From Thermodesulfovibrio sp. (GTDB taxonomy: Bacteria; Nitrospirota; Thermodesulfovibrionia; UBA6902): 64,000 nucleotides of DNA. The stretch spans positions 5,314 through 69,313 of the forward strand of contig JALSHG010000046.1 in assembly GCA_026982355.1 (NCBI GenBank). The letters are read 5' to 3'. The position numbers and the translations under genes are program-made. Shown here piece after piece: positions 10,618-43,503 of this stretch. The notes under the pieces are model-generated. The model made no database searches. It saw nothing but the letters and a program-made list of their open reading frames with translations, and was not told the origin of the DNA. Each line of letters starts with the position of its first letter. Within the stretch, counting starts at the first letter, position 1.

Positions 10618-11534
10618 TCATGATTATCCGCAAAGGCATTCCTCTGATATTACTTGCTACGCTGCTGTTTGGCTGCAACGGGCGGCAGCCTGCGGAAAAG
10701 GACGTACCGGAGAAAGTCAGCGTGCCGGCGCCCGCCGTCCAGCCCCCCCCTGCGGAATACGCAGTACTCCTCGGACCGGCCAACGCGACGCGACGGAGTG
10801 TCATATCGTTGAATGCGGACAGGGCGATACTGAAAGATGCCGAGATAAGCTGGTATGTCAATGATACCAGGGTCGAATCCGCAAAGGGAACCCGTTTTGC
10901 CTCAGAAGAATTAAGAAAGGGGGACATTGTCCGCGCGGTGGTGGTCAAAGGCAAAAAGAGATTGCCTTCAAATGAAATAACAATAAAAAATACACCCCCC
11001 GTGACGCTCAGAGCCGAGTTGTCGCCCGCCATGCCGAGGGCCGACTCAACCGTAATAGTTAATATAAAAACCAGAGACATTGACGGCGATAATGTGACAT
11101 TCAAATACAAATGGACCGTAAACGGCAAGTTTGCGGGTGAGGAGGAATTTCTCGACGGAGACCTTAAGAGGGGAGATATAATCACCGTGGAAGTTACTCC
11201 TTTTGACGGCGATGATTACGGACAGACCGTGAGGCTCAAAACGGAGATATTCAACTCCCCCCCGGTTTTCTCGGCAAAACAACCTTACCTGGACGGCAAC
11301 ATCTATAAATACCAGGTCGCCGCCACTGACCCCGACGGCGACAAGCTCACGTATGCACTGAAGGAGAGCCCCGAGGGCATGAGCATTGACCCGGCCACGG
11401 GCATGATCACATGGAACGTCTCTTCGGAAAATGAGGGCGTTTATGACATAAAGGTATCCATAAGCGACAACAACGGCGGGGAGATCATCGTGCCTTTCAG
11501 CACGCGGATAAGCCTGGGCGGGGAATCCGAGTAG
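10614..11534 (+). CDS. lipoprotein with tandem beta-sandwich repeats and C-terminal cadherin-like (Cadg/He_PIG-type) domain
   Basis: ATGA overlap with the pilY1 stop; lipobox LLFGC; internal repeats (ISWYVNDTRVES... / FKYKWTVNGKFAGEE...); C-terminal YQVAATDPDGDKLTYAL...PEGMSIDPATGMITW motif typical of dystroglycan-type cadherin-like domains. Confidence 0.6.
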   Translation: MIMIIRKGIPLILLATLLFGCNGRQPAEKDVPEKVSVPAPAVQPPPAEYAVLLGPANATRRSVISLNADRAILKDAEISWYVNDTRVESAKGTRFASEELRKGDIVRAVVVKGKKRLPSNEITIKNTPPVTLRAELSPAMPRADSTVIVNIKTRDIDGDNVTFKYKWTVNGKFAGEEEFLDGDLKRGDIITVEVTPFDGDDYGQTVRLKTEIFNSPPVFSAKQPYLDGNIYKYQVAATDPDGDKLTYALKESPEGMSIDPATGMITWNVSSENEGVYDIKVSISDNNGGEIIVPFSTRISLGGESE

Positions 11535-11540
11535 GCATTG

Positions 11541-11625
11541 ATGTTGCATAAACCGGCAGGAGAGTCCAACCTAAGACCACCTGACTCTCCTGCCGGCGGG
11601 CGGTGTTTTTATGCCGCTGTAAGGT
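11541..11625 (+). repeat. MITE/REP-like palindromic element, short form (copy a)
   Basis: atgTTGCATAAACCGGCAGGAGAGTCC-15 nt-GACTCTCCTGCCGGCgggcggtgTTTTTATGCcgCTGTAAGGT; a 15-bp perfect stem flanked by inverted TTGCATAA/TTATGC arms; lies in the gap between the lipoprotein gene and queD. Confidence 0.85.
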
Positions 11626-17261: not shown

Positions 17262-17345
17262 CCGTGCGGGATATTTCCTGAAGGAATCGCAGATAAAGGA
17301 CTTCCCTGCCCGCAGGCGATGTTTTTATGCCACTGCAAGGTATAT
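17262..17345 (+). repeat. MITE-like element, right half of the long form (copy c)
   Basis: cgccgtgCGGGATATtTCCTGaaGgAATCGCAGATAAAGgacTTCCcTGCCCGCAGGCGaTGTTTTTATGCCACTGcAAGGT aligns with the right half of the long copy at 32290-32410. Confidence 0.7.
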
Positions 17346-17366: not shown

Positions 17367-20300
17367 TCATTGAAAGCAAGCACAGGATCCACTGGAATCG
17401 ATCTTCAGTATCCACATATCATTCCAGGTAGACCCTGAGCCGAAAGAACGGGTACTTCCGGAAGCAATGTAGCCGCCATCAGTAATCTTTTTTATAACGT
17501 TTATCACATCATAATGTGCGGTACCATATGCCTTTTGCCACTGGATATCGCCGGCTGAATCAATCTTAAGTACCCATGCATCCTGATTATTAGAAGAGGG
17601 AGGAAAGAGATTGGCTCCTATAATGTATCCGCCGTCACCGGTCGTTTGAATATAGGGATTACCATCAACATCATCGACATTCAGATATTCTTTCTGCCAT
17701 AAAATCGTGCCGTTGCTATCCGTTTTTATAATAATCAGATGCGTTTCTCTAAGATATGGCCATTCTTCACCTTCACCAGGTGGCAATTCACCCTCTCCCA
17801 CCGGAACCACCCCTGGTGGCAATTCTCCAGAGGGCTGGACAGTAACTGTACCGGCAATAACATATCCATTATCATTTGTTGTCTCTATGGATGAGAAATA
17901 AATGTTTTCGTAAACTGTCGAATTATATCCCTTAATCCATTGTATTTCCCCGTCATTATCAAATCCGATTAACACGGGAGTGGAAGGCAATCCACTATAC
18001 TTATTTTCAGTTATCCACCCAACAGCAATAAACCCGCTATCAGCAGTTTGTTTAAAATCTGAAATCCCTGAATCGCTTAAATCGCCCTGATGATGGAACT
18101 TCCACCACTGTGTCTGACCATTACTGCCGAGTTTCAGTAGCATGATGCCATCCTGCCATCTTTCCTGATCTCGAATGTATATTTCCAGTCTGCCGATCAA
18201 TACATATCCTCCATCCATTGTCTGCCTTATCGAGGTAAAAGAGGTATGTCCTATATCATAATCCATCAACCCATATATCATCGCTCCGTTAACCACTTTA
18301 TTCCATATTATGTTTCCGTTTTCATCGAGTTTTATGACGAGCGGACCCGCTTCATTAACCTTAATACTGCCACCCAGCAGGATGTATCCACCATCAGATA
18401 TCTGATGGATCTCAAGAGCACCCTGATGAGCCGGATACCATAGTTGTTTATCCCATTCCACCTTCCCATTTGCAGAAAGTTTGATTGCCCTGATATCCCT
18501 GACATTGTCATTGTCGTACTGAGTGGTGGTTCCGGCTATTATGAATCCACCATCAGATGTCTGTTCAACATAATTGGCATTCATAGGCCCAAACGCCTTA
18601 GACCAGGTGTTATCTCCTTCAATACTAACAGTAGCAGTTGCCTCTAACCCGATACTATCCGTTACCCTCAGAGTCACGGCAGTGCCACCGCACTGAGAAT
18701 ATACTGTTTGCCCTGTATCTATGACTTTTATATCTGAGGGAACTTTCTGATGGAGATCAATACCCATTGGATAGTTCATGATACTACCGCTTTCCACTAA
18801 TGTGGAATCTGCCACCATTGCATCAGTCTCATAACTGATATTACACGGCTGAATGTTTACGATTGCGGTACCATTTCCATTATCAATAAGATTGATTGAA
18901 TCAGGCACAGCCTCATTACCTGTGCCTATCAATTCAAAGGTATAAGGTGGAACACCGCCACTTGCGGAGAATCCCTGTTGATCACCACATTGATCTATCA
19001 GAGCAACCGACGGTGATAACAACAGAGGCGGAACAACCATTATGGTTACGTTAACCTTCGCGCTCCCGCCGTTTGATGTTACGGAAATTGTATGCTGATA
19101 TACGCCTGGCTCAAGCCCTGTACGGTCGACACTTGCTACAAGCCTCTCGAATACTCCGGGGGCTGTCTCACCACTCATTAAGGAGACTGAAAGCCATGAG
19201 GGCAGATCATCAGTAATGCTCCAGTTCAGCATGTCTGTGTCGCTTGTGTTTTGAATGGTAAGCATTGCCTCAACTTCAGTTACGCCCAAGTCTATGGATG
19301 CAGGCTCAACAGACATGAATGGCGGAATACCGTAACCTGACAGGCTTACATGAACCTCGGATTCATCAGGGTCATCCGAGAGGATGGTAAGGTCCGCCCA
19401 GTGGGTGACATACACCTGACTGACCGGATCATAAGTTGCGGTTACAGTACAATTCCCTCCAGGCGGAAGGACGGATGGACAGTTGTTCGTCCGGGAGTAA
19501 TGAATCGACGTGCCGACAGATATTTCACGGATATGAAGATCGGCAAGTCCTGTGTTTGCTATTGTTATGTCCCGTGATTGGGTGGTGCCAAGTGGGACGG
19601 CAGAGAACTCTATACTGTCAGGCGTCACCTGTATATCAGGTCTTGCTATAACATTTGCAGCTATGTTTACATCAAATATTCCCTCATCCGGATCATTGGA
19701 CTTTATGTGTAATGTGCCTCCGTGAATGCCTGCAATAGTTGGTGTAAGTGTAATGGTTGCGGTACAGCTTCCCTGAGGCGGTAGTATCCCCGGACAGTCA
19801 TTAGTCTGGCTTAAAGATGTTGAACCGGTCAGGTATATGGAAAATATCCGTAAATCCGCCTCTCCTGTATTTGTAATTGCAACATCCTGAGTCCGTGTAT
19901 AATCACCTGTAACGTCTCCAAAGTCTATGCTTGCGGGGATGGCGGAGATATCGGGTAGAGTGAAGTTAACGGCAATGGTAAGAGGATTAAGATTCTGATC
20001 GTTTATGAAAACGCCTACGGACTGTATATCAGAAGGCACACAATCATTAATTTTTATCATGAAAGTGTCACGATATTGATAATCCAGATCTGCTTCAGCA
20101 GGAATAATATTGACCGGATATACGCTGTAGGGTGGAGAACCACCAAATATCTTGAACACCTGTCGGTCATTGCACCTGTCCATGGTGACAGTCTCAGGAT
20201 AAACAGTGAGGGGCCATTGTCCCTTGTCCCCTTCATAGAACACATAGAGCATGCCCGAGTAATCCCGCCATGTACCCTGCTCGAAAGGTTCCGGGGCCCT

Positions 20301-23300
20301 TGCAAGGGGGTCAATAATAAGCACATCGTTTCCTGCAAAGGGGTTAAGGTCTCCGATAGTGATAAATGTGCCGAAACCCTGTTTCCAGCCGGGATGTGCC
20401 TGGTCGCCTTTGAACATGAAATCCTCAGGGACACCTGAGCGGTCTGTAAGATGGATCGTTCCAGAAGGGAGTGTATCCGAGCCGTAAAAGCCCCACACAC
20501 TGCCCGGAACCTCTGAGCTTATTCTGCCAGGGGCGCCAACCAGTAAATCCTCGTACCCATCGCCATTGATATCACCGGCAGCCAGAGCTGCCCCGAATCT
20601 TGAGAGCACGGTTGAACCGTATATCTTCGCCATTGCACTGTGAGCTTCTCTTACTCCTGTATCAGATACAGGTCTTATTATCCCTGCCGGGAACTGACTG
20701 CCTGAAAAGATGTATACCATCCCTATCCGGGATTCCTGTATCTTTTCAGTAACAGGAGACCCGGACCATCCTCCACCCACTGTATATTCATAATCAAGAA
20801 ACTCTCCAGGACTTCCAAGAATCAACTCCCCTTTTCCATCCCCATCCAGGTCGGTTATCAGCATTGCCTTTCCAACCTCCCATCCGGGTGTAGCATCGTG
20901 ATACGATTCTCCAAACTCTGGACCAAAGACCACCACATACTGTTCTCCATTGTAAGTATATGCATTCAGAACCCTGTCACTTCCGCCGAAATCATTTCTG
21001 CCATAAAAGATAAATGCAGCACCCTTCCTCAGGAAGCTGTCATAACTCCTGTAATATCGGGGGGCGCCAACCACCAGATCATCCAGGCCATCTCCGTTGA
21101 TATCGCCAACGGCTATCCCTTCACCAAGGCCATCCCCCTTATATTCTGTAGTGAATATCCTCTGCCACTCACTCTCGCCCGTTATGACCACACCGTCTAT
21201 AGATGAAGGAATATTATCTACTATAATGTTTTGCGGCAATTCATTATTGCCGAAGATGACATAGACCTTTCCTGACCAGTCTATATCGGGCTGACCGGGG
21301 TTGAAGGGTTGTCGTGGTGCGGAGACGATAATATCCCCGTAATTGTCACCGTTTAGACTGGCCACCGCAACCTGATAGCCCAATTCCCGAAAGTTATCTC
21401 CTCTGATACGAATATCATATTCACCATAGGGGATATCATACCAGCGATTCCACTGTTCCCTCGGGCGTCCATAATAGATATAGGCAGCACCGCCAGTGTG
21501 GCCTTTGGATCCAACATCTTGATGTGTATCTTGAAAAGTGTCGGGATTTAAAAGATGAGAGCCCTCCTCGTTCAGGTCTGTGCTTCCGATGAGTAAGTCA
21601 TTTATGCCATCCCCGTTTATGTCCCCTGTGGCAAGTGAGTTTCCGATACGCTGGCAGAAATTGCTGTCCGGAGAATAGCAGGCTGTATAATCTCCCGAAA
21701 TGACCACATCCCAGTAGATATCCGTGGCATTTATATCCAGGTCCATGTATTGCTGTCCCGTGGGCAGGGAAACCCCCTCTACAGGACCGAAGGCTATATA
21801 TACTGCCCCCATGTACTGCCCCGGTCCGGACTGGTCCTGTGAGACACCTACAATCAGGTCATTGACTCCGTCACCTGTTATGTCACTGACCACTGCAGAT
21901 CTGATGTAACCGTTCGGTTTTCCAAATGCAATCAAGTCCTGGTCCGCCCAGGCGGCACTCTCGACACCCTTAAGGGCAAATTCCCCGGCAAACTGCCCAT
22001 CCCTCCCATAATCAACATCCAGCATGAGACTCACTTTCAGATTTTCACCCTGAAGTCTGCGAAGCTCCTCCGGCACTATGAATGTAAGTCGATCATAGGG
22101 TGCCCCCTGGCCAATCTCTACACCCAAAACAATCTCAACCGGGTGCGTGGGAGACTCTCCTGGATACCAGTCATTGACCCCGAACCTTACAACCATATCC
22201 TCTGGATGAGGGCTGAAGTGATCGCCAATTATTGATACTCTATCGCCTATGTAACCACTTGAGGGAATAATCTTATGAATGACAAGGTCCTTCCATGGAG
22301 GTAATCCGGTGCTTACTGAAGGGCCTTTTCTCCAGTAATCCTGATTGTATGGATCATCACGATCAACCAGTTTAAGTTCCATCCTGCCGGGATCATCAAA
22401 AATGGAGGTGCACTGAGTCACAAATGAGTCCGTATCAAGTTCAGCTATGCAGGTACAATCGACCTCATCACCGTTCCAGTAGACTTTGAACACATCGCCG
22501 CACATGGTACTAAACCCGAGTCCCCAGACATACCATCCACCATAGATATCATGCCAGTACATTCCATCGATAATCGGCGCCTCAATGACCGTGGTCTCGA
22601 AATGCTCGGGATACTCGGGAGGGTCTGCCAGACATTCAGGAGTCATACAGAGTCTGTCAGGGTAGTGATAAGGACCGCAGGAACCCTGGACATCAATACT
22701 GACATCCATCCTGTCCGTGCCTTCAGGCAGATCATAGACCCGGAGTGTGTGGATGTCTGCACCGATATCAGGATTGTCTCCGGTGGTAATATTACTTACA
22801 AGAGAGGTGTTCAAACTTTGAGCGGTTGACGGAACATTTACATCCTCAATGGTTATCCTGCCGACATCTATATCAAGGAGGTCAAGCACCACCCTGCCGA
22901 TTGTAGAAATCCTGCCTATAAATCTATTGAATCCGCCATTAGAAAAATCGGTATAGAGACCGAGTGTGTCCGAGGTGCCGGTAAACAGGATGCGAGGGTC
23001 CACACCTTCATAAGGACCGACCGCATCAATATACCAGCTTGCAGCATCTGCCTGTGTTGGGACAAGATTGAGGATATCCCTGATTATATAGAGTATATCA
23101 AGAACCCCCTCGACAATCTGTCTTGCGGTCTCTAATACAGGCAAAGCAGGCTGACAGACGAAAAAGCAGATCGCCTCGCCTGCTATCAATGCACGATCGA
23201 CCCAGCGCAGGATTCCTATAATATCATTCAGTATTCCGAGGACTTCACCGACATTGCAGATAGCCTCTCCCGTTGTGGAATGGCTTAGAATCTCATTTAT

Positions 23301-24665
23301 CAGGTCGAGCTTTCCGTTTATGAGGATAAAGATGTCACTGCCGAATATTGAATCCAGTGCTGAAAGCATCTGCGGGTCATAATCAGTGGGGAAGGAGACC
23401 TTCACGTCCTCCAGGAAGGTGATGATACGATTTAAATTCTCCTCAATCTTATTCCATGTCTCCTCAGGCACATAGGGCTTTACGAGTTGCTCCATTTTTC
23501 CGAGTGTCCTCTGTGTCTTGAGAATCAAGAGGTCAAATTCTTCTGAGAGTTCGTTGCCCTGAACATCCGGTGTGGGATCGACCGCAGGGACTACGTTGAA
23601 GGGAAGGGAATTGGACACATCTGTGTCGCTGTACACATAGACCTGAATCTCTTCATCCGTATTCAGAAACACAAATGGAACAACGACCTTCATGATGGTC
23701 TCAGTGGCTTCAAGCACAAATCCTGCGGCCCCCTGTTCAGTTCCCTTGAAATAAACCCCCATCACATTCTTATCAGGGGTGAAGCCCCTGCCTGTGAGGT
23801 TCAGTATCGAGCCTGACTGTCCGGTATCCGGAGAGACTCTCTCAAGGACGAGACCCGGCGCGGTTTGTTTAACATCAACATGGGCAGGATTACTCTCCAC
23901 CCCATTATATTCGGCATATACACCAAGGTGATTCTCCCCGCCGTTGAGCCGGACAGACACCTGAAAATAACCCGTATCAGGATGCGCCTGCCCGTATGTC
24001 TCCTCCGCTCCACCCCTTACGATAACATTTACACCGGGTACAGTACGTCCGCGAAGAATAACCGTCTGCCCGGAACTTACCCGGGGAGGAGGGATAACCT
24101 CCGGGATACCGAGCACTGTGACTGCGACACTGTCAGGGGTACTCTCCGATCCTTTCTCATCCTTTACAACAAGAGTAAAGGTATAAAACCCCTGAGATAG
24201 AGAGAGTACGGGGGTCACCAGATCCTCAGGGTCAGGGTCTCCTGTCCATATGTACCGCGTTATGGTGCCGTCAGGATCACTGGAAGCACTTCCATCAAGC
24301 TGAACATCTGTTGCAGTCTCTCCCTCAGGGAGAACTAAAATCCTGTCCTCCCCTGCATTTGCAACAGGCGGCTGGTTTTCATGAGAGACAATCTCACATC
24401 CGGGGAGTGTACACAGAAGGACAAGTTTCCTTGCATCAAGCCCTGTGATTACACCGTCACCGTCGATATCACATTCAGGGCAATTTTCTGAAGACTGGTT
24501 CCGATACTGCAGAAGGATACGTACGTCATCTCTGTCTATATCATCATCGTTATCAAGGTCCCCGGTAACCGCAGATAATGGAATGGCTGTAAAGATGAGT
24601 GTGAGAAAAACAAACAGACCTTTAATACAATACCTTTGAATTCCGGTAAGATTCCATTTTTTCAT
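17367..24665 (-). CDS. giant secreted multidomain surface protein (2432 aa): dockerin-like, PKD, IPT/TIG, FG-GAP/integrin-alpha repeats, ASH (HYDIN-like) Ig domains, C-terminal ~50-aa tandem repeat beta-propeller-like region
   Basis: Signal peptide; DLDNDDDIDRDDV / CDIDGDGVITGLDARKL dockerin-type Ca loops; DGSASSDPDGTITRYIW (PKD); several GDINGDG(I/L/Y)(N/D/E)DLL(I/V)G(S/A)P FG-GAP repeats; DFGDV...NTGEADL / IANTGLADL ASH domains; 8-9 C-terminal repeats of the TxDGGYIxxG...DxWVLKxDxxGxxxWxK pattern. GC is visibly lower than in flanking housekeeping genes. Confidence 0.8.
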   Translation of the reverse strand: MKKWNLTGIQRYCIKGLFVFLTLIFTAIPLSAVTGDLDNDDDIDRDDVRILLQYRNQSSENCPECDIDGDGVITGLDARKLVLLCTLPGCEIVSHENQPPVANAGEDRILVLPEGETATDVQLDGSASSDPDGTITRYIWTGDPDPEDLVTPVLSLSQGFYTFTLVVKDEKGSESTPDSVAVTVLGIPEVIPPPRVSSGQTVILRGRTVPGVNVIVRGGAEETYGQAHPDTGYFQVSVRLNGGENHLGVYAEYNGVESNPAHVDVKQTAPGLVLERVSPDTGQSGSILNLTGRGFTPDKNVMGVYFKGTEQGAAGFVLEATETIMKVVVPFVFLNTDEEIQVYVYSDTDVSNSLPFNVVPAVDPTPDVQGNELSEEFDLLILKTQRTLGKMEQLVKPYVPEETWNKIEENLNRIITFLEDVKVSFPTDYDPQMLSALDSIFGSDIFILINGKLDLINEILSHSTTGEAICNVGEVLGILNDIIGILRWVDRALIAGEAICFFVCQPALPVLETARQIVEGVLDILYIIRDILNLVPTQADAASWYIDAVGPYEGVDPRILFTGTSDTLGLYTDFSNGGFNRFIGRISTIGRVVLDLLDIDVGRITIEDVNVPSTAQSLNTSLVSNITTGDNPDIGADIHTLRVYDLPEGTDRMDVSIDVQGSCGPYHYPDRLCMTPECLADPPEYPEHFETTVIEAPIIDGMYWHDIYGGWYVWGLGFSTMCGDVFKVYWNGDEVDCTCIAELDTDSFVTQCTSIFDDPGRMELKLVDRDDPYNQDYWRKGPSVSTGLPPWKDLVIHKIIPSSGYIGDRVSIIGDHFSPHPEDMVVRFGVNDWYPGESPTHPVEIVLGVEIGQGAPYDRLTFIVPEELRRLQGENLKVSLMLDVDYGRDGQFAGEFALKGVESAAWADQDLIAFGKPNGYIRSAVVSDITGDGVNDLIVGVSQDQSGPGQYMGAVYIAFGPVEGVSLPTGQQYMDLDINATDIYWDVVISGDYTACYSPDSNFCQRIGNSLATGDINGDGINDLLIGSTDLNEEGSHLLNPDTFQDTHQDVGSKGHTGGAAYIYYGRPREQWNRWYDIPYGEYDIRIRGDNFRELGYQVAVASLNGDNYGDIIVSAPRQPFNPGQPDIDWSGKVYVIFGNNELPQNIIVDNIPSSIDGVVITGESEWQRIFTTEYKGDGLGEGIAVGDINGDGLDDLVVGAPRYYRSYDSFLRKGAAFIFYGRNDFGGSDRVLNAYTYNGEQYVVVFGPEFGESYHDATPGWEVGKAMLITDLDGDGKGELILGSPGEFLDYEYTVGGGWSGSPVTEKIQESRIGMVYIFSGSQFPAGIIRPVSDTGVREAHSAMAKIYGSTVLSRFGAALAAGDINGDGYEDLLVGAPGRISSEVPGSVWGFYGSDTLPSGTIHLTDRSGVPEDFMFKGDQAHPGWKQGFGTFITIGDLNPFAGNDVLIIDPLARAPEPFEQGTWRDYSGMLYVFYEGDKGQWPLTVYPETVTMDRCNDRQVFKIFGGSPPYSVYPVNIIPAEADLDYQYRDTFMIKINDCVPSDIQSVGVFINDQNLNPLTIAVNFTLPDISAIPASIDFGDVTGDYTRTQDVAITNTGEADLRIFSIYLTGSTSLSQTNDCPGILPPQGSCTATITLTPTIAGIHGGTLHIKSNDPDEGIFDVNIAANVIARPDIQVTPDSIEFSAVPLGTTQSRDITIANTGLADLHIREISVGTSIHYSRTNNCPSVLPPGGNCTVTATYDPVSQVYVTHWADLTILSDDPDESEVHVSLSGYGIPPFMSVEPASIDLGVTEVEAMLTIQNTSDTDMLNWSITDDLPSWLSVSLMSGETAPGVFERLVASVDRTGLEPGVYQHTISVTSNGGSAKVNVTIMVVPPLLLSPSVALIDQCGDQQGFSASGGVPPYTFELIGTGNEAVPDSINLIDNGNGTAIVNIQPCNISYETDAMVADSTLVESGSIMNYPMGIDLHQKVPSDIKVIDTGQTVYSQCGGTAVTLRVTDSIGLEATATVSIEGDNTWSKAFGPMNANYVEQTSDGGFIIAGTTTQYDNDNVRDIRAIKLSANGKVEWDKQLWYPAHQGALEIHQISDGGYILLGGSIKVNEAGPLVIKLDENGNIIWNKVVNGAMIYGLMDYDIGHTSFTSIRQTMDGGYVLIGRLEIYIRDQERWQDGIMLLKLGSNGQTQWWKFHHQGDLSDSGISDFKQTADSGFIAVGWITENKYSGLPSTPVLIGFDNDGEIQWIKGYNSTVYENIYFSSIETTNDNGYVIAGTVTVQPSGELPPGVVPVGEGELPPGEGEEWPYLRETHLIIIKTDSNGTILWQKEYLNVDDVDGNPYIQTTGDGGYIIGANLFPPSSNNQDAWVLKIDSAGDIQWQKAYGTAHYDVINVIKKITDGGYIASGSTRSFGSGSTWNDMWILKIDSSGSCACFQ

Positions 24666-24729: not shown

Positions 24730-25323
24730 TTACTGCTTCTTTCTTTTTCTTAAAAACCCTATTACTGCCAGACCACTTCCCACAAGCAGTAAAGTGCCGG
24801 GCTCAGGAACCACATTGACATTTCCACTCTGCACAGTAGCATAAAGAGGACTTGCCCAGGCATCAGATAGGGAATTGATATAGACATCTAAAGAACTTGA
24901 CCCTAAGGCAAGGGTATCAAAACTAAGGGTTGCAAGGGTAAAACTCCCCGCCTGCCATGTATCCAGATCATAAGGGGAATCAAAAGAAAGCTCAAAGAGA
25001 TTAACATTGCCATATTCGGGAATGGTATTAGTGTAACTTACAAATCCCGATAGGTCCAGCTGGTCTCCAAGTACGGGATCGCCGTAGACTGCACTGTTGA
25101 AAGAAAGCACAGTCGGATCAAAAAGGATATCAAGATCAAACATGCCAAGAGAAGGTGGTGTATAATCTCCCAGCCCCGATATAACAATATCCACAAAGGC
25201 TTGCTCACCTGAGAGCACATCCTGATCTACAGGGTCAAAGCTGATGGTTACAGCATAAGATGAATTGAGGCTGAAAAGCAGCAGCATCGCCGTTGCCGTG
25301 AATAAAAACAATACCTTTTTCAT
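24730..25323 (-). CDS. PEP-CTERM sorting-domain protein (exosortase substrate)
   Basis: MKKVLFLFTATAMLLLF signal peptide; C-terminal VPEPGTLLLVGSGLAVIGFLRKRKKQ = PEP motif + TM helix + basic tail; 64 bp upstream of the giant protein on the same strand. Confidence 0.85.
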   Translation of the reverse strand: MKKVLFLFTATAMLLLFSLNSSYAVTISFDPVDQDVLSGEQAFVDIVISGLGDYTPPSLGMFDLDILFDPTVLSFNSAVYGDPVLGDQLDLSGFVSYTNTIPEYGNVNLFELSFDSPYDLDTWQAGSFTLATLSFDTLALGSSSLDVYINSLSDAWASPLYATVQSGNVNVVPEPGTLLLVGSGLAVIGFLRKRKKQ

Positions 25324-25439
25324 GACCGGATACCCCCCTTTCCTGCTGAAACCGACGGGTATTTCAATCACTCAATGTGGTGTTGGTTATTTTTTACCAT
25401 ACGGGATGTCACAAACAGGTCACAGAAAGCCCCGATATA

Positions 25440-25560: not shown

Positions 25561-28500
25561 TTATTTCATGCTTTCCCTGTAGACCGCCTCGGTCTCGGGT
25601 GAGGGCTTTACGCGAAGGACGCCGGAGAGTGCATTCAGGCAACTGTAATAGGTCTTTTTCACTTCACCGCGGTAGCCCAGGCGGGCGTAACACTTCATGA
25701 GTTGCTGGTACAGCTCCTCTGCAAGCGGATCCACTTCCAGCCCCCTCCTGCAACATTCTATCGCCCTTTTAAATTGACCGTTCTGCCGGAGGTATTCCCC
25801 CGTACCTGCAATATGCCGCAGAAATCTGTTCCTGAGACGTTCCCGCATGGAGAATGTCCAGTGAAACTCCGCATCTTCCCCGAGAAAATCGCCCTTATAC
25901 ATGCACAGGGCCTTCTCGAATAATTCAAACACCTTTCCGGGGCTCTTCGTGCTCCTGACCCTTGTCTCGATCTCCGAGAGGATTCTTTCAAATGCCCATG
26001 CATCCACCCAGCAGTATAGATGGTCCAGGGTCACCTTGCCTTTACCGACACGGATCGCCGCCTCGTTGCCGAGTATCCCGCGCAGCCGCTGGAGCGTGGT
26101 TGTAAAGGCGCTGACAGCGGCATCACCGTATGTATCGGGCCAGAGTGCGTCGATGAGCCTGCCCGTGCCGACCCCTCTGCCGCCGAATGCGATCAAGGCC
26201 TTCAGCAGGGCTACCGGTTTCTGCCGGGCCTTCTTCAGGAAACGCACCGGTCTTCCGTTTACGAGCAGGCCGAACCGGCCGAGGGTGTATATTTTTACAG
26301 GCCAGGGCCAGTCCTCGACATGAAGGGGGGGTGTGTCGGGGATGAGGTTGTGCCTTTTTACAAGATCAATGACATACTCTCTTTCTATTCCGGCCTCCAG
26401 CGCGCCGACACACAGCCGGGCCATCACACGGGGCCGCCAGAAGATGAAATAAACAAGCCCGTGTCTTCTGCCCAGGGCCATCGCCTGCCTGAGAAAACCG
26501 AGGGCGTTGCGTTTTTTCCCTGTGGCAAGCGCAAAATATGCCCCGGACACGAGGCACATATACTCTATCATGAGGCTCTTCATGCCGCGCCCGATCCCGC
26601 ATGCCGTGGAGAGGGCTTCAGCCGCCTCGTGATGTTCGCCGCGCTCAAACAGCACCTGTGCCATTGCATAGCGGATCATGGCCTCCATGAAAGGGAATCC
26701 TGCCGTGACTACAAGGTCAAGGGCTATGCTTATATGTTCAAAGGCATTCAGCAGGTCATGGCGGAGCATGGCCTCCCATGCCAGCAAATACCGGTAGTAT
26801 GCTGTGTTCATGATCTGCGAATCTCCCGCTTTCCCCTCCGCCTCTTCAAACAGCCTCCTTGCCCCCTCCAGGTCGCCGGTACCGAGGCAGCCGGATGCTC
26901 CGTGCATCAGAAGCTGCAGCAACATCGTATCCACACCGCTGCTCCGCACAACGCCGAGTCCCTCGGAAACCGTCTCAAGGCACAGGCTGTGCATGCCCTT
27001 AAGCGAGTAGCACATCGCCTCGAACGCCTTCAATGTTGTAAAGGCCAGGGGTGAGACGCGCCCGTCCCGCGCCAGGCTCCTGAGCGGGGCGATTACCTCT
27101 TCCGCCTTTGAGAACCGGCCCGTCCACTGGTAATACAGCGACACATCAACCTCCGACAATATCCTGAGACCGGGGTCCCTGACCTCACGGCAGGCGGCAA
27201 GAACGCGCTGCGCCCACTCTTCAATTTCAGGATGAGAGGGCTGTCTCATCAGCAGGGATATAAACATGCTGGATATCGCTCGGCTTTTTGTCTCCGTGGA
27301 GGGGAAACGGTGGCCGGAGCGGAAAAGCCCTTCAAGCACGGCTATCCACTTATCAAGCAATTTGAAATCCGCCTGTTCATATAAAACCGCATCAACCGCC
27401 CCGCAGCAGGACATAAACATTCCGCTGACGTCCTCCTGTGCCGCAAATCGCCTGTAGGCCCGATCAAACAGGACGCGGCTCACCGGTGAATCAAAAGGCA
27501 ACTCGCATACGCCAAGCCAGAAAAGGAGCCATGGAGCATTGTCGAGAAACTCTTCCGGAAGGCTCCTGATCCACTGCCCGAGCATCTGGTTTCTGCCCTG
27601 TGCAACAAGCCCCTCCGCATGCTTCATGATGAGATTTGCAAGCCCCCGCCGGTCCCTTGAAACGATGTAGAGGTGGGCCGCTTCCTCCGTCTCTCCGGCA
27701 TCCTCCAGTAGCAGGGCGGCCTTCCGCCTCAATCTGCGGAGTTCTTTGCGGGGATATGCCCTGTACGCACAGGAAAGGAGGAACTCCCTGAAAAGCGGAT
27801 GATATTGATACTTGTCCTCGGCCCCGGGCCGTTTGGCAATGAAATAGTTTCTCTGATACAGGGCCGCGAGTATCCCGGCGGAACGGTCCAGTCCCGTGAG
27901 TTTCATGGTCATATCAGGGTTCATCACGGGAAGCACGGATGTCTTCAGCAGGAACTCCCTGCTCTCCGCATCGGCATCGTCAAATGTTTCATTGGCGAAA
28001 TAGTCGAATATCTCATCATGGGAGGCGCTTTCAGGGTACTGATATTCCCCGCCGCCTGTGTCTCCCCTCTCAAGCATGAGCACAAGCCCGGCCACCCATC
28101 CGGATGACCGGCGGTGGAGAGTTTCAGCCGTTTCCCTTGGGACATCCCTCCTGATACGGATGATGCCCTCTGCCTCGTCAAGGGTGAGCTGCAGGTCTTC
28201 CCATGCAAGGAGGGAAACCATTCCATTGACCCTGAGGCGCACAAGCTCTTTCGGCATGCTGTCACGGCTGATAATTACAACATTGACCCCTTCGGGAATA
28301 CATGAGAGACCCTCTCTCATAACCACGTGCAGTAACGACCGGCGATCCGCCTCGTGATAGTTGTCAAGCACTATCACAAACGGCTGCCCAAGCCTGCTGA
28401 AAAGCTCCCCGAAGTACCGCCTTGTGAAAGCGGGGATGGATTTCCGGTATTCCGGCGTCAGAACGGGCAGGGGCTGCCGCCTCCGGGGACGGGCTTTCTT

Positions 28501-28758
28501 TGCCGCCAGCCCCATGTAATAAAAGAATGTGGCTGTATCGGAATCATGCTCATCAACCTGATACCACAGGCATGGAAGTCTCCTGGAATCTATATAACTG
28601 TTGAGGAGAGTGGTCTTCCCCGAACCCGGAGGACCCGTTATCCAGATGACAGGCCTGTTGCGTTTGCCGTCAAGCAGGCGGAACAACCTCTCGCGATTCA
28701 GCACTTCCGCATAAACGGGGCGTGTTATCTTTGCCGGATATACTGATTTGCCCTTCAT
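25561..28758 (-). CDS. large STAND-type ATPase transcriptional regulator: N-terminal P-loop NTPase (MalT/NB-ARC-like) + TPR-like helical region + C-terminal SARP (winged-helix + BTAD) domain
   Basis: Start assigned to MKGKSVYPAKI (ATG 28758), since the upstream in-frame extension is low-complexity. Walker A VIWITGPPGSGKTTLL, Walker B FVIVLDNYHE. C-terminal KIYTLGRFGLLVNGRPVRFLKKARQKPVALLKALIAFGGRGVGTGRLIDALWPD (OmpR/SARP wHTH) followed by a BTAD helical domain (LYCWVDAWAFE...). Confidence 0.75.
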   Translation of the reverse strand: MKGKSVYPAKITRPVYAEVLNRERLFRLLDGKRNRPVIWITGPPGSGKTTLLNSYIDSRRLPCLWYQVDEHDSDTATFFYYMGLAAKKARPRRRQPLPVLTPEYRKSIPAFTRRYFGELFSRLGQPFVIVLDNYHEADRRSLLHVVMREGLSCIPEGVNVVIISRDSMPKELVRLRVNGMVSLLAWEDLQLTLDEAEGIIRIRRDVPRETAETLHRRSSGWVAGLVLMLERGDTGGGEYQYPESASHDEIFDYFANETFDDADAESREFLLKTSVLPVMNPDMTMKLTGLDRSAGILAALYQRNYFIAKRPGAEDKYQYHPLFREFLLSCAYRAYPRKELRRLRRKAALLLEDAGETEEAAHLYIVSRDRRGLANLIMKHAEGLVAQGRNQMLGQWIRSLPEEFLDNAPWLLFWLGVCELPFDSPVSRVLFDRAYRRFAAQEDVSGMFMSCCGAVDAVLYEQADFKLLDKWIAVLEGLFRSGHRFPSTETKSRAISSMFISLLMRQPSHPEIEEWAQRVLAACREVRDPGLRILSEVDVSLYYQWTGRFSKAEEVIAPLRSLARDGRVSPLAFTTLKAFEAMCYSLKGMHSLCLETVSEGLGVVRSSGVDTMLLQLLMHGASGCLGTGDLEGARRLFEEAEGKAGDSQIMNTAYYRYLLAWEAMLRHDLLNAFEHISIALDLVVTAGFPFMEAMIRYAMAQVLFERGEHHEAAEALSTACGIGRGMKSLMIEYMCLVSGAYFALATGKKRNALGFLRQAMALGRRHGLVYFIFWRPRVMARLCVGALEAGIEREYVIDLVKRHNLIPDTPPLHVEDWPWPVKIYTLGRFGLLVNGRPVRFLKKARQKPVALLKALIAFGGRGVGTGRLIDALWPDTYGDAAVSAFTTTLQRLRGILGNEAAIRVGKGKVTLDHLYCWVDAWAFERILSEIETRVRSTKSPGKVFELFEKALCMYKGDFLGEDAEFHWTFSMRERLRNRFLRHIAGTGEYLRQNGQFKRAIECCRRGLEVDPLAEELYQQLMKCYARLGYRGEVKKTYYSCLNALSGVLRVKPSPETEAVYRESMK

Positions 28759-28796: not shown

Positions 28797-28898
28797 TAAG
28801 TGTAACCTTACAGCGGCATAAAACCACCGCCCGCGGGCAGGAGAGTCCGGAGGTTTTACGCCGGACTCCCCTGCCGGCTTGTGCGACATCAGGGTTAA
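28797..28898 (-). repeat. MITE/REP-like element, short form, inverted orientation (copy e)
   Basis: taaccTTACAGcgGCATAAAAcCACCgcccgcgGGCAGGAGAGTCCGGaggttttacgCCGGACTCcCCTGCCGGCTTgTGCgACatcagggTTAAG; in the divergent promoter region between the regulator and the kinase/pyrophosphorylase gene. Confidence 0.8.
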
Positions 28899-32170: not shown

Positions 32171-32417
32171 TTTTATGCCACTGTAAGGTAAACCTTAATG
32201 TTGCATAAGCAGGCAGGAGAGTCCGCCGTAAAACCTTTATAAAGCGATGGGATATTGGAAAGATGTCCCTGTTGCAGGACGTAACGGAGAGTGAAATTCC
32301 AAAAGACGTTGATATGCCCTGCGGGATATGTCCTGGATGTATCGCAGATAAAGCTTTTCCTCCGGACTCTCCTGCCCGCAGGCGGTGTTTTTATGCAACT
32401 GTAAGGTAAACTTAACG
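32171..32417 (+). repeat. MITE-like element, long form (copy f, about 220 bp) preceded by a 24-bp right-end fragment of a second copy
   Basis: ttTTATGCCACTGTAAGGTAAAcc (orphan right end) then TTAATGTTGCATAAGCAGGCAGGAGAGTCCGCCGTAAAACCTTTATAAAGCGATGGGATATTGG...ATCGCAGATAAAGCTTTTCCTCCGGACTCTCCTGCCCGCAGGCGGTGTTTTTATGCAACTGTAAGGTAAACTTAACG; same ends as the short form plus an internal module of about 140 bp. Confidence 0.85.
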
Positions 32418-36090: not shown

Positions 36091-37329
36091 TCAGAAAAAC
36101 GTTACATTTCCCTCTTCTTCTGCAGGGCCCGTCCCATGGGGACCGCAACCACCGGTCGCTGATATGTCAAGTGCCTCCCGAGCCATTTTCCTTTCATGTT
36201 CCATAGTATAAAGAGCTTTAAGCTCCCTGAATATCTCATCTTTTATTCCGATCTGGTTCAAATTATACTCTATCTTTTCCGAGCCGAGCAAGGCATCAAT
36301 ATCTTCTCTGATTCTGCTTATCGCCTCAATTATATGCGATGTCATCTGTTTTGTTATATCTTCAAACTGCATATTAAACGTTATCTCCTTGATTTCTTCT
36401 TTGATTTTGTCCACTGACTGCATTGACGAACCGGTGATATCATTGAATTTTAATGTTGACTCTTTTATGGCATCAAAAACCGTTGCTACTATATTCTGGA
36501 CATCCCTTATCTTCATCTCCTCACTGCTTGCTGTATTCCTGATTTGATCGCCGATCCGGACAACATATTCATTAAGACCCTTGATCTCTTTTTTTATTAC
36601 AGAGGCCTGTTCTGCGGATTTTGCGGCAAGTTTTCTGACCTCGTCAGCAACTATTGCGAATCCTGCACCATATTCACCGGCTCTCGCTGCCTCAATGGAT
36701 GCATTAAGCGCAAGCAGGTTTGTCTGATCTGCGATCTCCGCAACATTATCAGAAAACGGAAGTATGTTGTCCAATACATTATCCATATTTTCAGCATATT
36801 CAGCAGCACTCTTGTATCTTTCAACGCTAACCAACAGTCTCTGCACGGTATCAGTTCCCAATGCCGTGACTTTTTCGAGAACTTTAGGCATATCCGGACA
36901 AATATTCTCCTGTTTCAGGCAGGACTGCAGATCTCTCTTGCAGTTCTCCAGGGCAGATCCTTCAATCGATTGAAGAGAAATGCACATCTTGAATATGGAC
37001 GCCCTGTTAAGGTTCTTAATTTCCTCGATTTGATGTACCAGGTCTGAAAAGCTCCTGACCACCTGTACCGACGACCCTTCTATCCTGTTGCTGGCGCTTA
37101 CAAGCTGACTTTCAACAACAGAAAGAATTTCTTTCGACGTCAAGGCATTTTTCTGAAATGATACGATCAGCTCTGCAATCCCTTTGATATGTTGTCTCTG
37201 TGCCTCACGGTATTCCATGAATTCGTCATTCAGACGCAACTTGTCGTTTCTGCACTTTCTCCATGCAACAACAGCGATTGTAAGCACAGCAATCAGGAAA
37301 ATGTTTATTATCCACAAATAAATATTCAC
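36091..37329 (-). CDS. methyl-accepting chemotaxis protein (membrane-anchored)
   Basis: N-terminal TM helix; signalling-domain signature [37 protein letters not shown]; last gene of the che operon (ATGA overlap with cheA). Confidence 0.9.
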   Translation of the reverse strand: MNIYLWIINIFLIAVLTIAVVAWRKCRNDKLRLNDEFMEYREAQRQHIKGIAELIVSFQKNALTSKEILSVVESQLVSASNRIEGSSVQVVRSFSDLVHQIEEIKNLNRASIFKMCISLQSIEGSALENCKRDLQSCLKQENICPDMPKVLEKVTALGTDTVQRLLVSVERYKSAAEYAENMDNVLDNILPFSDNVAEIADQTNLLALNASIEAARAGEYGAGFAIVADEVRKLAAKSAEQASVIKKEIKGLNEYVVRIGDQIRNTASSEEMKIRDVQNIVATVFDAIKESTLKFNDITGSSMQSVDKIKEEIKEITFNMQFEDITKQMTSHIIEAISRIREDIDALLGSEKIEYNLNQIGIKDEIFRELKALYTMEHERKMAREALDISATGGCGPHGTGPAEEEGNVTFF

Positions 37330-40214: not shown

Positions 40215-40232
40215 GGCTTTTCCCCCTTGCAA

Positions 40233-40440
40233 GGGCATAAAACACCGGCGGCTCCGGGCGGGAGAGCCTGCCTGAAAAGTTTTACATGCAATTCCTCAAC
40301 TGAATATTCCCCACGGCATATTGCCGTCTTGATCAATTTTATTTTCCGTTACGTTCTGCAACAAAGGCATGTTACCAACATCCCATCGCTTTATAAAGAT
40401 TTTACGCCGGACTCCGCTGCCGGCTTATGCAACATTGAGG
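40233..40440 (-). repeat. MITE-like element, long form, inverted orientation (copy j), between cheY and cheA
   Basis: The reverse complement reads cGTTGCcTcAATGTTGCATAAGCCGGCAGcgGAGTCCGgCGTAAAAtCTTTATAAAGCGATGGGATgTTGG...tcaggcaggctctcccGCCcGgAGccGccGGTGTTTTATGCcCtTG. Co-linear with copy f, including the internal module. Confidence 0.85.
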
Positions 40441-40447
40441 CAACGTT

Positions 40448-40813
40448 TCACCCGATTATTTTCCTGACAACACCCAGCAGTGCATCCGGCTTGAAGGGTT
40501 TGACCATCCACGCCTTAACCCCGGCATCTTTTCCCTCCTGTTTTTTCCCGTCCTCACTCTCTGTAGTCAACATGACTATGGGGACGAATTTGAATGCAGG
40601 CAATGACTTTAGTGCCTTCACAAATTCAATGCCGTTCATATTCGGCATATTGAGGTCTGTTATTACCATAGACACCTTTTTCCCCTGCAATCTGTTCAGC
40701 GCCTCCTTCCCGTCCGATGCCTCTATTACTTCGTAGCCGCTGTTCCTGAGCGTCATAGCAACCAGTCCCCTCATGGACACTGCATCATCAACTATTAATA
40801 AAGTCTTTGCCAT
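40448..40813 (-). CDS. cheY: chemotaxis response regulator CheY
   Basis: 121 aa; LLIVDDAVSMR...VITDLNMPNMNG...KPF; single receiver domain. Confidence 0.9.
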   Translation of the reverse strand: MAKTLLIVDDAVSMRGLVAMTLRNSGYEVIEASDGKEALNRLQGKKVSMVITDLNMPNMNGIEFVKALKSLPAFKFVPIVMLTTESEDGKKQEGKDAGVKAWMVKPFKPDALLGVVRKIIG

Positions 40814-40909
40814 TTAAACCTCCACATAATGTACACACAATCTCGTTCCATATGTCGTTTAAAGCATGCCTTACAACTCAGGCATGTGGGTAGCCGTGTT
40901 CGATTGAGG

Positions 40910-41191
40910 TCAGGGCATATCGATTCCATATAAATTGAAAATTTCTCTTACTGTCTCAGGCATTTCCGATATTGAAAATTTCCCGCCAGATTCCTTTGAT
41001 GATATCATCAGTGAAAGAAGCAGTTGAAAATAGGCTGTATCCATCTCCTCAACGTCTCTTGCATTAACCTCTATATTTTTTACAGCCTTAAGCAAGGGCT
41101 GAAGTTTTTCAGTGTCAGCTTCTACTTCGGCTATAGTGCATTCCCTCTCCAGCGTAACAGTAACCCTGTTTTTATTTTTTTTCAGTTTCAT
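40910..41191 (-). CDS. STAS domain protein (anti-sigma-factor antagonist-like) in the che operon
   Basis: 93 aa; ...VNARDVEEMDTAYFQLLLSLMISSKESGGKFSISEMPETVREIFNLYGI matches STAS topology; overlaps the upstream receiver gene by 4 nt. Confidence 0.6.
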   Translation of the reverse strand: MKLKKNKNRVTVTLERECTIAEVEADTEKLQPLLKAVKNIEVNARDVEEMDTAYFQLLLSLMISSKESGGKFSISEMPETVREIFNLYGIDMP

Positions 41192-41553
41192 TGCCCTTCT
41201 CCCAGAAGCATTTTTATATGAAGGGCCAGATCAGCGGGCTTTACCGGCTTTACAACGTAAATGTTTGCCCCTGCTTCAAAGCCCTTTCTCCTGTGCACGG
41301 TCTCTTCCTGTGTTGAAATAATGATGATGGGAGTTTCTCTTTCCTCTTCCCGATACTTTGAAATAAAGGTCAGGCCATCCATATTGGGCATGTTAATATC
41401 ACACAGTATAAGGTCATAGTCGTTCGAAAGGGCCTTCTCAAGAGCCTCTATCCCGTCTCCTGCACCGTCTGCCATGAATCCGGACGTTTTTAATATATTC
41501 ATGTGAAAACTCCTGACCACCTTTGAATCATCCACTACAAGCACCTTTTTCAT
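41188..41553 (-). CDS. CheY-like single-domain response regulator
   Basis: 121 aa; VLVVDDSKVVR...LILCDINMPNMDG...KPVKP receiver motifs. Confidence 0.88.
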   Translation of the reverse strand: MKKVLVVDDSKVVRSFHMNILKTSGFMADGAGDGIEALEKALSNDYDLILCDINMPNMDGLTFISKYREEERETPIIIISTQEETVHRRKGFEAGANIYVVKPVKPADLALHIKMLLGEGQ

Positions 41554-41559
41554 TATTCC

Positions 41560-42432
41560 CTACTCCTTCATGTAAACCAAGTAATCCCCGGCCTTTCTGA
41601 CCTTGAAGGCTGTATTGATCCGCCCTACGGACTCACTTGAACCAAGGAAGATATATCCTCCTTTATTAAGGGCTATATAGAAATGGTCTACAACCTGTTT
41701 TCTCGATACATCGTCAAAGTATATAAGCACATTACGGCAGAATATGAAGTCATAGCCTCTCATCTTCCTCATCGCGGCCCTATCCGCAAGGTTGAGATGT
41801 TCAAGTCTTACAAGCTTTTTCACCTCATCACGCAGCCTGTGTGCCCCGTTCAGTCCGCTGTCAAAATATCGTTTGCGGTATTCACCGGGAACGTTCTTCA
41901 CACTCCTGTCGCCGTAGACTGCAAAACGGGCCTTGCTGAGTATATCCATGTCTATATCTGTTGCCGTTATTTCTATATCCCACTCACTGATATCGTCGAG
42001 CATTTCAAGGAGAATAATGGCGAGTGTGTACGGCTCTTCACCGCTGGAACATGCCGCAGACCATATTCTCAGACTCCTGTCACCTGCATAAGCCTTTCTC
42101 TCCGTAACATCCACAAGGGCATGTTCCGCAAAGCTCTGCAACTGGGGGAAGTCCCTGAAAAAGTATGTTTCGTTTATTGTCAGCAGATTCAACAGGTTCT
42201 GCATTTCCATCCCGTCACTGTCAAGAAACCTGAGAAATCTGATATATTCAGAAGGACTTTCCATGCCGAGTTTGTCAAGCCTCTGTTTCACCCTTTTGGA
42301 GAGGAAGTAAATCTTCCTGGACTCAAGCCATATTCCTGCTTTCCTGTATATAAAATCACTCAGCCTCTTATAATCCTCGGCGGTCAATTCCATATTGGCC
42401 GCTCTGTATGCTGTTCTTGCCATTTTATTCAC
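41560..42432 (-). CDS. cheR: chemotaxis protein methyltransferase CheR
   Basis: 290 aa; ETYFFRDFPQLQSF, SAACSSGEEPYTLAI, FCRNVLIYFD motifs. Confidence 0.93.
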   Translation of the reverse strand: MNKMARTAYRAANMELTAEDYKRLSDFIYRKAGIWLESRKIYFLSKRVKQRLDKLGMESPSEYIRFLRFLDSDGMEMQNLLNLLTINETYFFRDFPQLQSFAEHALVDVTERKAYAGDRSLRIWSAACSSGEEPYTLAIILLEMLDDISEWDIEITATDIDMDILSKARFAVYGDRSVKNVPGEYRKRYFDSGLNGAHRLRDEVKKLVRLEHLNLADRAAMRKMRGYDFIFCRNVLIYFDDVSRKQVVDHFYIALNKGGYIFLGSSESVGRINTAFKVRKAGDYLVYMKE

Positions 42433-43492: not shown

Positions 43493-43503
43493 TTTTCTCC
43501 CCC

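Follow-up and report, generated by a model that had tools for sequence, protein, structure and literature searches.

The window analysed here is a stretch of 64,000 nucleotides (nt) from contig JALSHG010000046.1 of Thermodesulfovibrio sp. (assembly GCA_026982355.1). It carries two adjacent genes on its minus strand, a short one for a PEP-CTERM protein with the predicted fold of a cohesin and, directly downstream, one for a giant protein of 2432 amino acids (aa) with a dockerin module close to its N-terminus. We consider it probable that the cohesin is sorted by an exosortase and keeps dockerin-tagged cargo attached to the cell surface or matrix. Such a pairing of an exosortase-type cohesin with exchangeable, dockerin-tagged cargo is widespread and, apparently, undescribed. 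The elements on which the argument is built are located in the window as follows.

24730..25323, minus strand: cohesin anchor gene, 197 aa; the start is M17 of a 213-aa open reading frame (ORF; 24730..25371) and the product is identical to protein P0001
25252-25323, minus strand: signal peptide of the cohesin anchor, aa 1-24
24808-25251, minus strand: cohesin beta-sandwich, aa 25-172 (AlphaFold2 model and Foldseek)
24733-24810, minus strand: PEP-CTERM region with VPEP motif, transmembrane (TM) helix and RKRKKQ tail, aa 172-197
17367..24665, minus strand: giant cargo gene, 2432 aa (ORF calling; Pfam and NCBIfam domains)
24570..24665, minus strand: Sec signal peptide of the giant, aa 1-32 (...AIPLSA|VTG; read from the sequence)
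24390..24569, minus strand: dockerin module of the giant, aa 33-92 (Dockerin_1 match)

The PEP-CTERM neighbour has a predicted cohesin fold

The C-terminus of the small protein, VPEPGTLLLVGSGLAVIGFLRKRKKQ, scores 27.3 bits against PF07589 (cut-off 20.7) and 26.2 bits against TIGR02595 (cut-off 16). Searches of PDB sequences using phmmer and the family profile gave weak matches only, the best profile match being the ScaC cohesin 5lxv, which made a fold search necessary. The AlphaFold2 model was based on a 40-sequence alignment and reached a pLDDT of 92.7. It consists of strands over aa 25-172 and a helix at aa 175-196. When this model was compared to PDB structures using Foldseek, the best 50 matches were all cohesins, with E-values from 4e-11 to 2e-6 and best TM-scores on the target of 0.77-0.80. 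These matches cover cohesin types I, II and III, cellulosomal as well as non-cellulosomal, at a sequence identity to known cohesins of 10-19%. Judged by the model, the small PEP-CTERM neighbour of the giant is a cohesin.

The relatives point in the same direction. Pfam Cohesin (PF00963) is matched by 22 of 40 family members with a best E-value of 1.1e-5, three members carry a precomputed PF00963 match, and PEP-CTERM is matched by 39 of the 40. The family is large, with 1156 representatives at E ≤ 1e-30 and 4019 at E ≤ 1e-10 (HMMER against 1.84 billion cluster representatives, each standing for a 50%-identity cluster), and uniform in length, nearly all of the best 150 listed having about 200 aa. 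No curated NCBIfam PEP-CTERM family reaches its cut-off. NF038129 comes closest at 39.3-39.7 bits vs 65, and within the 40-sequence sample it gave no E-value better than 4.3e-10 (equal to 39.7 bits).

An earlier note on this DNA, made from the sequence alone, had placed a PEP-CTERM protein directly upstream of the giant, which both profile scores bear out. It had also offered two routes of anchoring, a cohesin-like partner or the PEP-CTERM/exosortase system. A cohesin-like partner is indeed found, as the adjacent protein has the cohesin fold and its pairing with a dockerin is conserved across phyla (see below). The two routes come down to one thing, since both are contained in a single protein; no exosortase was detected among the window's ORFs of at least 180 aa.

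The giant carries a dockerin of a distinct subtype

Both calcium loops of the giant's dockerin are canonical and 12 residues long, as read from the sequence and aligned with 22 relatives. Loop 1 spans D36-D47 (DLDNDDDIDRDD) and loop 2 D66-D77 (DIDGDGVITGLD). The conserved helix is ARKLVLLCTLPGC, and cysteines are located at C62, C65, C85 and C90. Dockerin_1 (PF00404) matches aa 35-79 with 19.9 bits when the complete giant is scanned, which falls short of the gathering threshold of 22.9, and with 28.2 bits, above it, when the module is scanned in isolation. With both loops present and the isolated module above the cut-off, the N-terminal pair of dockerin-type calcium loops that had been proposed can be regarded as genuine. 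Scanned alone, 22 of the 23 modules of the family match Dockerin_1.

The family profile was compared to PDB as well. Its best match is the dockerin of a cellulosomal GH48 enzyme (2y3n_B, E 3e-8), and it also matches calmodulin-type EF-hands at E ~1e-4. The subtype follows the consensus GDLDGDGDVDxxDLxxLLxxRNxP...CDLDGDGxITVLDARKLVLLCTRPRC, in which the second helix is far better conserved than the first. A C-x4-C pair follows the second helix in most members. A profile search with the dockerin alignment matched only fragments of 45-125 aa, and no census of cargo was drawn from these.

Cohesin and dockerin genes are paired across phyla

We compared 29 independent loci of the cohesin family, comprising the window, two metagenome contigs and 26 species-representative genomes. 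The genomes are labelled as Deltaproteobacteria/Thermodesulfobacteriota, Gammaproteobacteria (including the cultured Methylovulum psychrotolerans), Binatia, Omnitrophota, Spirochaetes, Phycisphaerales, Acidobacteriota, Methylomirabilota, Verrucomicrobia, Myxococcota and Nitrospirales. In a hidden Markov model search, a dockerin of the window type was found in a same-strand ORF adjoining the cohesin gene at 21 of the 29 loci, from at least 10 phyla. The gaps between the two genes, measured between stop-to-stop ORF segments, are mostly 4-60 nt. Further dockerin matches in these loci (domain E ≤ 1e-5) are confined to a second ORF in L017 and two more in L026. Hence the pairing of cohesin and dockerin is conserved and specific to one dockerin subtype. 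In the 21 adjacent pairs, the identities between cohesins correlate with those between dockerins (Mantel r 0.49, permutation p 0.002), a correlation confounded by shared ancestry and by the linkage of paired genes.

The position of the dockerin within the cargo varies. It is C-terminal in most loci, N-terminal in the window, in L005 and in one cargo each of L017 and L026, and internal in one RHS protein (aa 1212-1272). The N-terminal location had been taken as exceptional in the earlier note, a view that does not hold for a family in which the module occurs at either end. The cargo itself is unrelated between loci and includes arrays of Big_5/He_PIG/CarboxypepD_reg domains, a pair of Laminin_G_3 lectin domains, a PD40 propeller with PKD, TSP3 with CARDB, DUF4215 and RHS repeats. 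In one metagenome-assembled genome (MAG) of the Gammaproteobacteria, the gene next to the cohesin encodes an RHS-repeat protein with the dockerin (L021, 10567-15129), which suggests that toxin-like cargo may use the cohesin anchor too.

Some loci deviate in gene number. Three dockerin genes and two cohesin-PEP-CTERM genes lie within 13 kb in Nitrospirales NPIRA02 (L026, 4241-16937). One full cohesin gene is followed downstream by two short cohesin fragments in L011 (9959-13617), and a separate RHS gene is located 6 kb from the cohesin in L004 (16626-20600).

Dockerin and cohesin occur together among homologs of the giant

The giant is present as an identical copy in public collections (P0382, on a 71-kb contig) and has about 12 full-length relatives at 32-60% identity. 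These homologs share a common body and differ in the module that precedes it. The body starts with the PKD domain, also in the homologs devoid of a dockerin, and can be aligned from 'ENQPPVANAGEDR' onward. It is preceded by the same dockerin subtype in P0383, P0388 and the L017 cargo, by a different dockerin-like module in P0384, and by a non-dockerin domain in P0385, P0386, P0390-P0392 and P0397.

Four of the dockerin-bearing members have an adjacent cohesin, namely those of the window, P0388 (L031), the L017 cargo and P0384 (L033). A family cohesin 44% identical to that of the window is located ahead of P0388. No cohesin neighbour was found at the dockerin-less homologs P0385, P0392 and P0387, whose neighbourhoods were examined. 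The surroundings thus agree with the N-terminal module without exception.

The P0384 locus is particularly instructive. In its body, P0384 shares 59% identity with the giant, and the BTAD regulator is likewise located upstream. Its dockerin scores only 26.7 bits vs ~90 for typical modules, and the PEP-CTERM cohesin-like protein ahead of it 52 bits vs ~296 for the window cohesin, to which it is 30% identical. Dockerin and cohesin have both diverged at this locus, as though the pair had been exchanged as a unit.

Other ends of these proteins deserve mention. Several homologs, namely P0383, P0384, P0385, P0390, P0391, P0392 and P0398, are rich in Gly and Glu towards the C-terminus and finish with a very short hydrophobic tail, e.g. 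GGGGIIILR, GGVVIIIR, GGIIIPRQ or GGLVPVPVPGG. Such tails could represent an unrecognised C-terminal sorting or anchoring signal in place of the dockerin. Directly after the dockerin-less homolog P0387 an SLH-domain protein of about 620 aa is encoded (L036, 9090-10964; L037, 8524-10389), which may be another anchoring arrangement for the same body.

The cohesin-cargo cassette is variable and low in GC

The guanine-cytosine (GC) content amounts to 0.43-0.50 over 17-25 kb of the window vs 0.52-0.59 in the flanks. At third codon positions (GC3), the giant has 0.455 and the cohesin 0.394 vs 0.57-0.71 for eno, pyrG, kdsB, rpoA, rpsD and secY. GC3 of cohesin and cargo lies below that of the neighbours in three further loci. 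An equally low GC3 of 0.45-0.53 is found in a complete chemotaxis operon (36091-48736, minus strand), which likewise differs from the remainder of the window. This operon encodes two methyl-accepting chemotaxis proteins, a CheA with two Hpt domains, CheR, a HEAT-repeat protein, CheB and a protein of 677 aa combining four CheW domains with a CZB zinc-binding domain. The low-GC block at 35-50 kb had been considered as an exopolysaccharide/exosortase locus; this was rejected, as the block corresponds to the chemotaxis operon. Low GC alone was likewise dismissed as proof of horizontal transfer, the operon being just as low, and we therefore turned to a comparison of synteny.

The MAG GCA_013152795.1, labelled 'Deferribacteres bacterium' (L005, the same as L003), is syntenic with the window. 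In the flanks, UDPGP is 91% and the STAND/BTAD regulator 89% identical at the protein level, with 88-89% identity of the DNA. The cohesin genes share only 70.6% of the DNA and 62.6% of the protein sequence, and the drop begins at the end of the regulator. The L005 cargo (2820 aa) has only aa 1-108 in common with the giant (56% identity), comprising the signal peptide, which is conserved between both N-termini, and the dockerin; the remainder is unrelated. As the flanks are closely similar, the cohesin is divergent and the cargo is unrelated beyond the dockerin, this comparison indicates an exchange of cargo behind a retained dockerin. In L005 an AAA_14/DUF4143 ATPase gene (8505-9731, GC3 0.49), absent from the window, is inserted between regulator and cohesin. 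The insertion adds to the evidence that the junction of regulator and cohesin is a hotspot for insertion or exchange.

The GC drop at 17.3-25.4 kb that the earlier note had seen is thus real by GC and GC3 profile, though not unique to the cassette. The horizontal acquisition deduced from it is supported by the synteny with L005, and base composition is no proof of it.

Proposed mechanism and alternative explanations

Based on these data, we propose that the two genes represent a 'socket and plug' operon for surface display. Both proteins have signal peptides and would be exported by Sec. The cohesin would then be passed via its PEP-CTERM region to an exosortase and reach the cell surface or the exopolysaccharide matrix. 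The calcium-binding dockerin directly behind the signal peptide would be the sole attachment device of the giant and would bind the cohesin non-covalently with Ca2+. Tethered in this way, the giant could use its integrin-like, Ig-like and propeller domains for adhesion or aggregation. Cassettes of cohesin plus cargo would be exchanged between genomes, one socket family and one dockerin subtype serving unrelated cargo. For the broader generalisation the chances appear about even: the single-cohesin PEP-CTERM family would be a universal surface 'socket' of modular display in diderms, with a dedicated and probably disulfide-stapled dockerin subtype, cargo including giant adhesins, lectins and RHS toxins, and cassettes swapped between genomes to vary the surface of the cell.

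Several points weigh against surface anchoring by an exosortase-sorted cohesin. The window cohesin itself has no Pfam Cohesin match at E ≤ 0.1, so that its identification rests on the fold and on its relatives. No exosortase was detected among the ORFs of at least 180 aa in the 64-kb window. Eight of the 29 loci are devoid of a dockerin gene within 7 kb of the cohesin, and the confounding of the Mantel correlation has to be kept in mind. Moreover, the giant with its 2432 aa would still have an outer membrane to cross, and what becomes of PEP-CTERM proteins after cleavage by the exosortase is in itself hypothetical (Haft et al. 2006, PMC1569441).

Some of this would also suit a periplasmic function, with the cohesin-like protein being an inner-membrane-tethered chaperone, secretion adaptor or retention factor and the PEP-CTERM helix a mere membrane anchor. 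In this role it would retain the dockerin-tagged protein or pass it on in the course of export. Pairing, co-variation and presence/absence demand an interaction only and no particular place for it, the model ends in a TM helix, no exosortase was seen among the ORFs scanned, and where PEP-CTERM proteins finally reside is unproven (Haft et al. 2006, PMC1569441). However, 39 of 40 family members keep the full PEP-CTERM motif instead of a plain TM helix, and a dockerin at either end of the cargo is better suited for a tether than for an export signal. To our knowledge, all known cohesin-dockerin pairs, as in cellulosomes, act outside the cell. Haft et al. 2006 (PMC1569441) moreover tie PEP-CTERM to exosortase processing and to export together with exopolysaccharide. 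We thus regard the periplasmic function as unlikely.

It is quite improbable that the two genes are mere neighbours, joined by co-regulation, with the dockerin-like segment being a generic calcium stabiliser of the EF-hand type and the PEP-CTERM protein an independent matrix protein. The match of the dockerin profile to calmodulin-type EF-hands would allow for this, as would the FG-GAP and TSP3 calcium loops common in such proteins and the eight cohesin genes without a dockerin neighbour. But a generic stabiliser does not explain why one dockerin subtype with the helix ITVLDARKLVLLCTRPRC occurs at 21 of 29 loci, whatever the cargo or the position, why dockerin-less homologs of the giant have no cohesin neighbour, or why dockerin and cohesin diverge jointly at the P0384 locus. 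In addition, the fold of the neighbour is genuinely that of a cohesin. A small enzyme complex that degrades polymers in the manner of a cellulosome comes to mind as cohesin-dockerin pairs are best known from cellulosomes and as BACON and PKD domains often accompany glycan-active proteins. Here a single cohesin is present, the giant and nine other cargo proteins scanned contain no recognised glycoside hydrolase, carbohydrate-binding module or further catalytic domain, and the similarity of the giant to CylK (see below) covers only the propeller. We rejected this idea as highly improbable because no enzyme domain was found in the proteins scanned and there is no scaffoldin.

Domain architecture of the giant

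Apart from signal peptide and dockerin, the following regions of the giant were assigned.

24114..24377, minus strand: PKD domain, aa 97-184 (K319L-like PKD, PF22352, 43.9 bits; PKD_4, PF18911, 36.9 bits)
22296..23582, minus strand: segment of ~430 aa without recognised family, aa 362-790, partly helical and Cys-rich
20226..21968, minus strand: FG-GAP/integrin-alpha-like repeat region, ~aa 900-1480 (PF01839, 109.6 bits, 6 stretches)
19068..19970, minus strand: two choice-of-anchor-D/HYDIN-ASH Ig-like domains, aa 1566-1777, and BACON_2, aa 1784-1866 (Pfam, NCBIfam)
17370..18608, minus strand: C-terminal seven-bladed beta-propeller (7 blade motifs; ends in ...SSGSCACFQ)

The ORF of 2432 aa at 17367..24665 is real and located on the minus strand, and the PKD, IPT, about six FG-GAP and two HYDIN/ASH domains claimed for it in the earlier note were all recovered by Pfam and NCBIfam. 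TIG (IPT) is matched in two stretches. The segment aa 362-790 has no Pfam match and no PDB sequence match; it is kept in the homologs of the giant, with motifs such as ILSHSTTGEAICNV in P0383-P0393. The FG-GAP region contains three DINGDG calcium-loop motifs, at aa 1007, 1180 and 1357, and its six stretches are one fewer than the seven blades of an integrin-alpha-type propeller. The HYDIN/ASH stretches fall in the same region as choice-of-anchor D. Over these domains and BACON_2, NF012200 scores 127.8, PF22544 73.3 and PF19190 31.6 bits.

The C-terminal repeats, spanning aa 2038-2432, exist as described previously, their number being seven and not 8-9. Blade motifs are located at aa 2038, 2091, 2151, 2209, 2265, 2344 and 2396. 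The repeats are homologous to the propeller of CylK (7fh8/7ron; phmmer E 4.5e-11, 3 stretches). Judged from the alignment, this is a common fold only, as the match covers nothing but the CylK propeller, and no alkylating activity is implied. From its domain content, the giant is predicted to be an adhesin or aggregation factor.

Operon structure and genomic surroundings

The ATG of the giant at 24665 follows the cohesin stop codon after 64 nt and has a Shine-Dalgarno sequence (GGAG) 5 nt upstream. The cohesin ATG at 25323 is preceded by the Shine-Dalgarno-like GGGGGG. The short gap together with the giant's own Shine-Dalgarno sequence suggests that both genes form one operon. A terminator-like hairpin is present after the regulator gene, and the scan for promoters and terminators as a whole gave no excess over shuffled expectation. 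Further features of the surroundings are listed below.

25561..28758, minus strand: STAND-type regulator, AAA_16/MalT-TPR/BTAD, 1065 aa (domain scan)
11583-11614 (+), 17299-17330 (+), 28816-28847 (-), 32365-32396 (+): copies of an intergenic repeat core
near 40225-40441, 44665-44708, 53718-53759 and 58867-59003: looser copies of the repeat
1098-1171, 4592-4805 and 8232-8311 of L005: copies of the repeat in the related MAG

The STAND regulator adjoins the cohesin-cargo pair in two related genomes, L005 (89% aa identity) and L033 (61%). A functional link to the pair can only be inferred from this arrangement. The rest of the window is ordinary chromosome with ruvAB, queH, divIC-eno-pyrG-kdsB and a ribosomal protein/secY operon.

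Another adhesion-related locus is found at 2945-11534 (plus strand), 6 kb from the giant. It comprises a type IV minor-pilin cluster (GspH-like, PilW, PilX) followed by a PilY1-like protein of 1499 aa and, thereafter, a He_PIG/Big_9 Ig-domain protein of 306 aa. Copies of the intergenic repeat (core GACTCTCCTGCCCGCAGGCGGTGTTTTTATGC) are located behind gene ends, one of them directly behind the stop codon of the giant. The window contains 4 matches to the 32-nt core vs 0 expected by chance. By its placement it looks like a repetitive extragenic palindromic (REP) or terminator-like element.

Comparison to known systems

In function, the nearest known counterpart is ScaE of Ruminococcus flavefaciens, a single cohesin with a C-terminal sorting signal, which carries an LPXTG sortase signal and tethers the dockerin-bearing proteins ScaB and CttA to the cell wall. 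The ScaE cohesin (2zf9) is among the fold matches of the cohesin anchor at rank 46. Like ScaE, the anchor is a small secreted protein with one cohesin and a C-terminal sorting signal and a predicted socket for dockerin-tagged proteins, and the cargo of ScaE includes a non-enzymatic adhesin, CttA. ScaE depends on LPXTG, sortase and the Gram-positive wall, whereas the protein described here would depend on PEP-CTERM, an exosortase and a diderm envelope. There is no X-module and no scaffoldin hierarchy, and the cargo is adhesin-like or toxin-like instead of cellulolytic. By analogy, the exosortase-sorted cohesin would be the diderm counterpart of the sortase-anchored ScaE.

Non-cellulosomal cohesins and dockerins occur in all domains of life and their function is described as largely unknown (Peer et al. 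2009 as cited in PMC5244752). The fold matches include such proteins, i.e. the Archaeoglobus fulgidus cohesin 2xdh and 2jh2 and 2vo8 of Clostridium perfringens. As in those cases, the modules of the window are found outside cellulose degraders; they are set apart by a constant architecture with one cohesin, by a dockerin subtype of their own and by operonic pairing. For the syntrophic sulfate-reducing partners of anaerobic methanotrophic archaea (ANME), the accessible part of Murali et al. 2023 (PMC10553843) describes adjacent, highly expressed 'cohesin/dockerin complexes' as putative adhesins and notes that cohesin/dockerin genes move between clades. Those loci resemble ours by description in having adjacent cohesin and dockerin genes in uncultured diderms, the expression there being high in aggregates. 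The same part of that work is a domain catalogue without a link of PEP-CTERM/exosortase to cohesins and without a dockerin subtype, the term 'PEP-CTERM' being confined there to exopolysaccharide gene tables.

With the PEP-CTERM proteins (Haft et al. 2006, PMC1569441; NF038129, PepA) the cohesin anchor shares the N-terminal signal peptide, the C-terminal PEP motif with TM helix and basic tail, and the occurrence in environmental diderms. Such proteins were described as having 'little homology to known proteins', and cohesins and dockerins are not named in their founding paper (Haft et al. 2006, PMC1569441). Unlike in typical members, the passenger here can be recognised as a cohesin, and a partner is predicted for it. 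In its body, the giant is of the same kind as the choice-of-anchor D/FG-GAP giants of NF012200, and among these relatives the anchoring varies between this dockerin, a different dockerin and a non-dockerin N-terminal domain. In the literature searched, which is covered incompletely, no paper joins 'PEP-CTERM' and 'cohesin', and an earlier description elsewhere is possible.

Significance

The binding of cohesin and dockerin serves as a model case of protein assembly, and its understanding comes almost entirely from the cellulosomes of Gram-positives. PEP-CTERM/exosortase systems, in turn, are widespread in environmental diderms and their substrates are mostly anonymous. The locus is predicted to link both systems in that a cohesin socket installed by the exosortase would hold exchangeable, dockerin-tagged adhesins, lectins and toxins. 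If so, a simple binding assay would suffice to test what a protein family with more than 1000 clusters does, and new orthogonal cohesin-dockerin pairs would be available for surface display in Gram-negatives. It would assign a role to non-cellulosomal cohesin-dockerin pairs of Gram-negative bacteria and define, for the first time, a molecular role of a PEP-CTERM family. For the organisms themselves, it would explain how giant adhesins without a covalent anchor are retained on diderm cells, in flocs and in biofilms, and the exchange of cassettes would provide a mechanism for rapid diversification of the cell surface.

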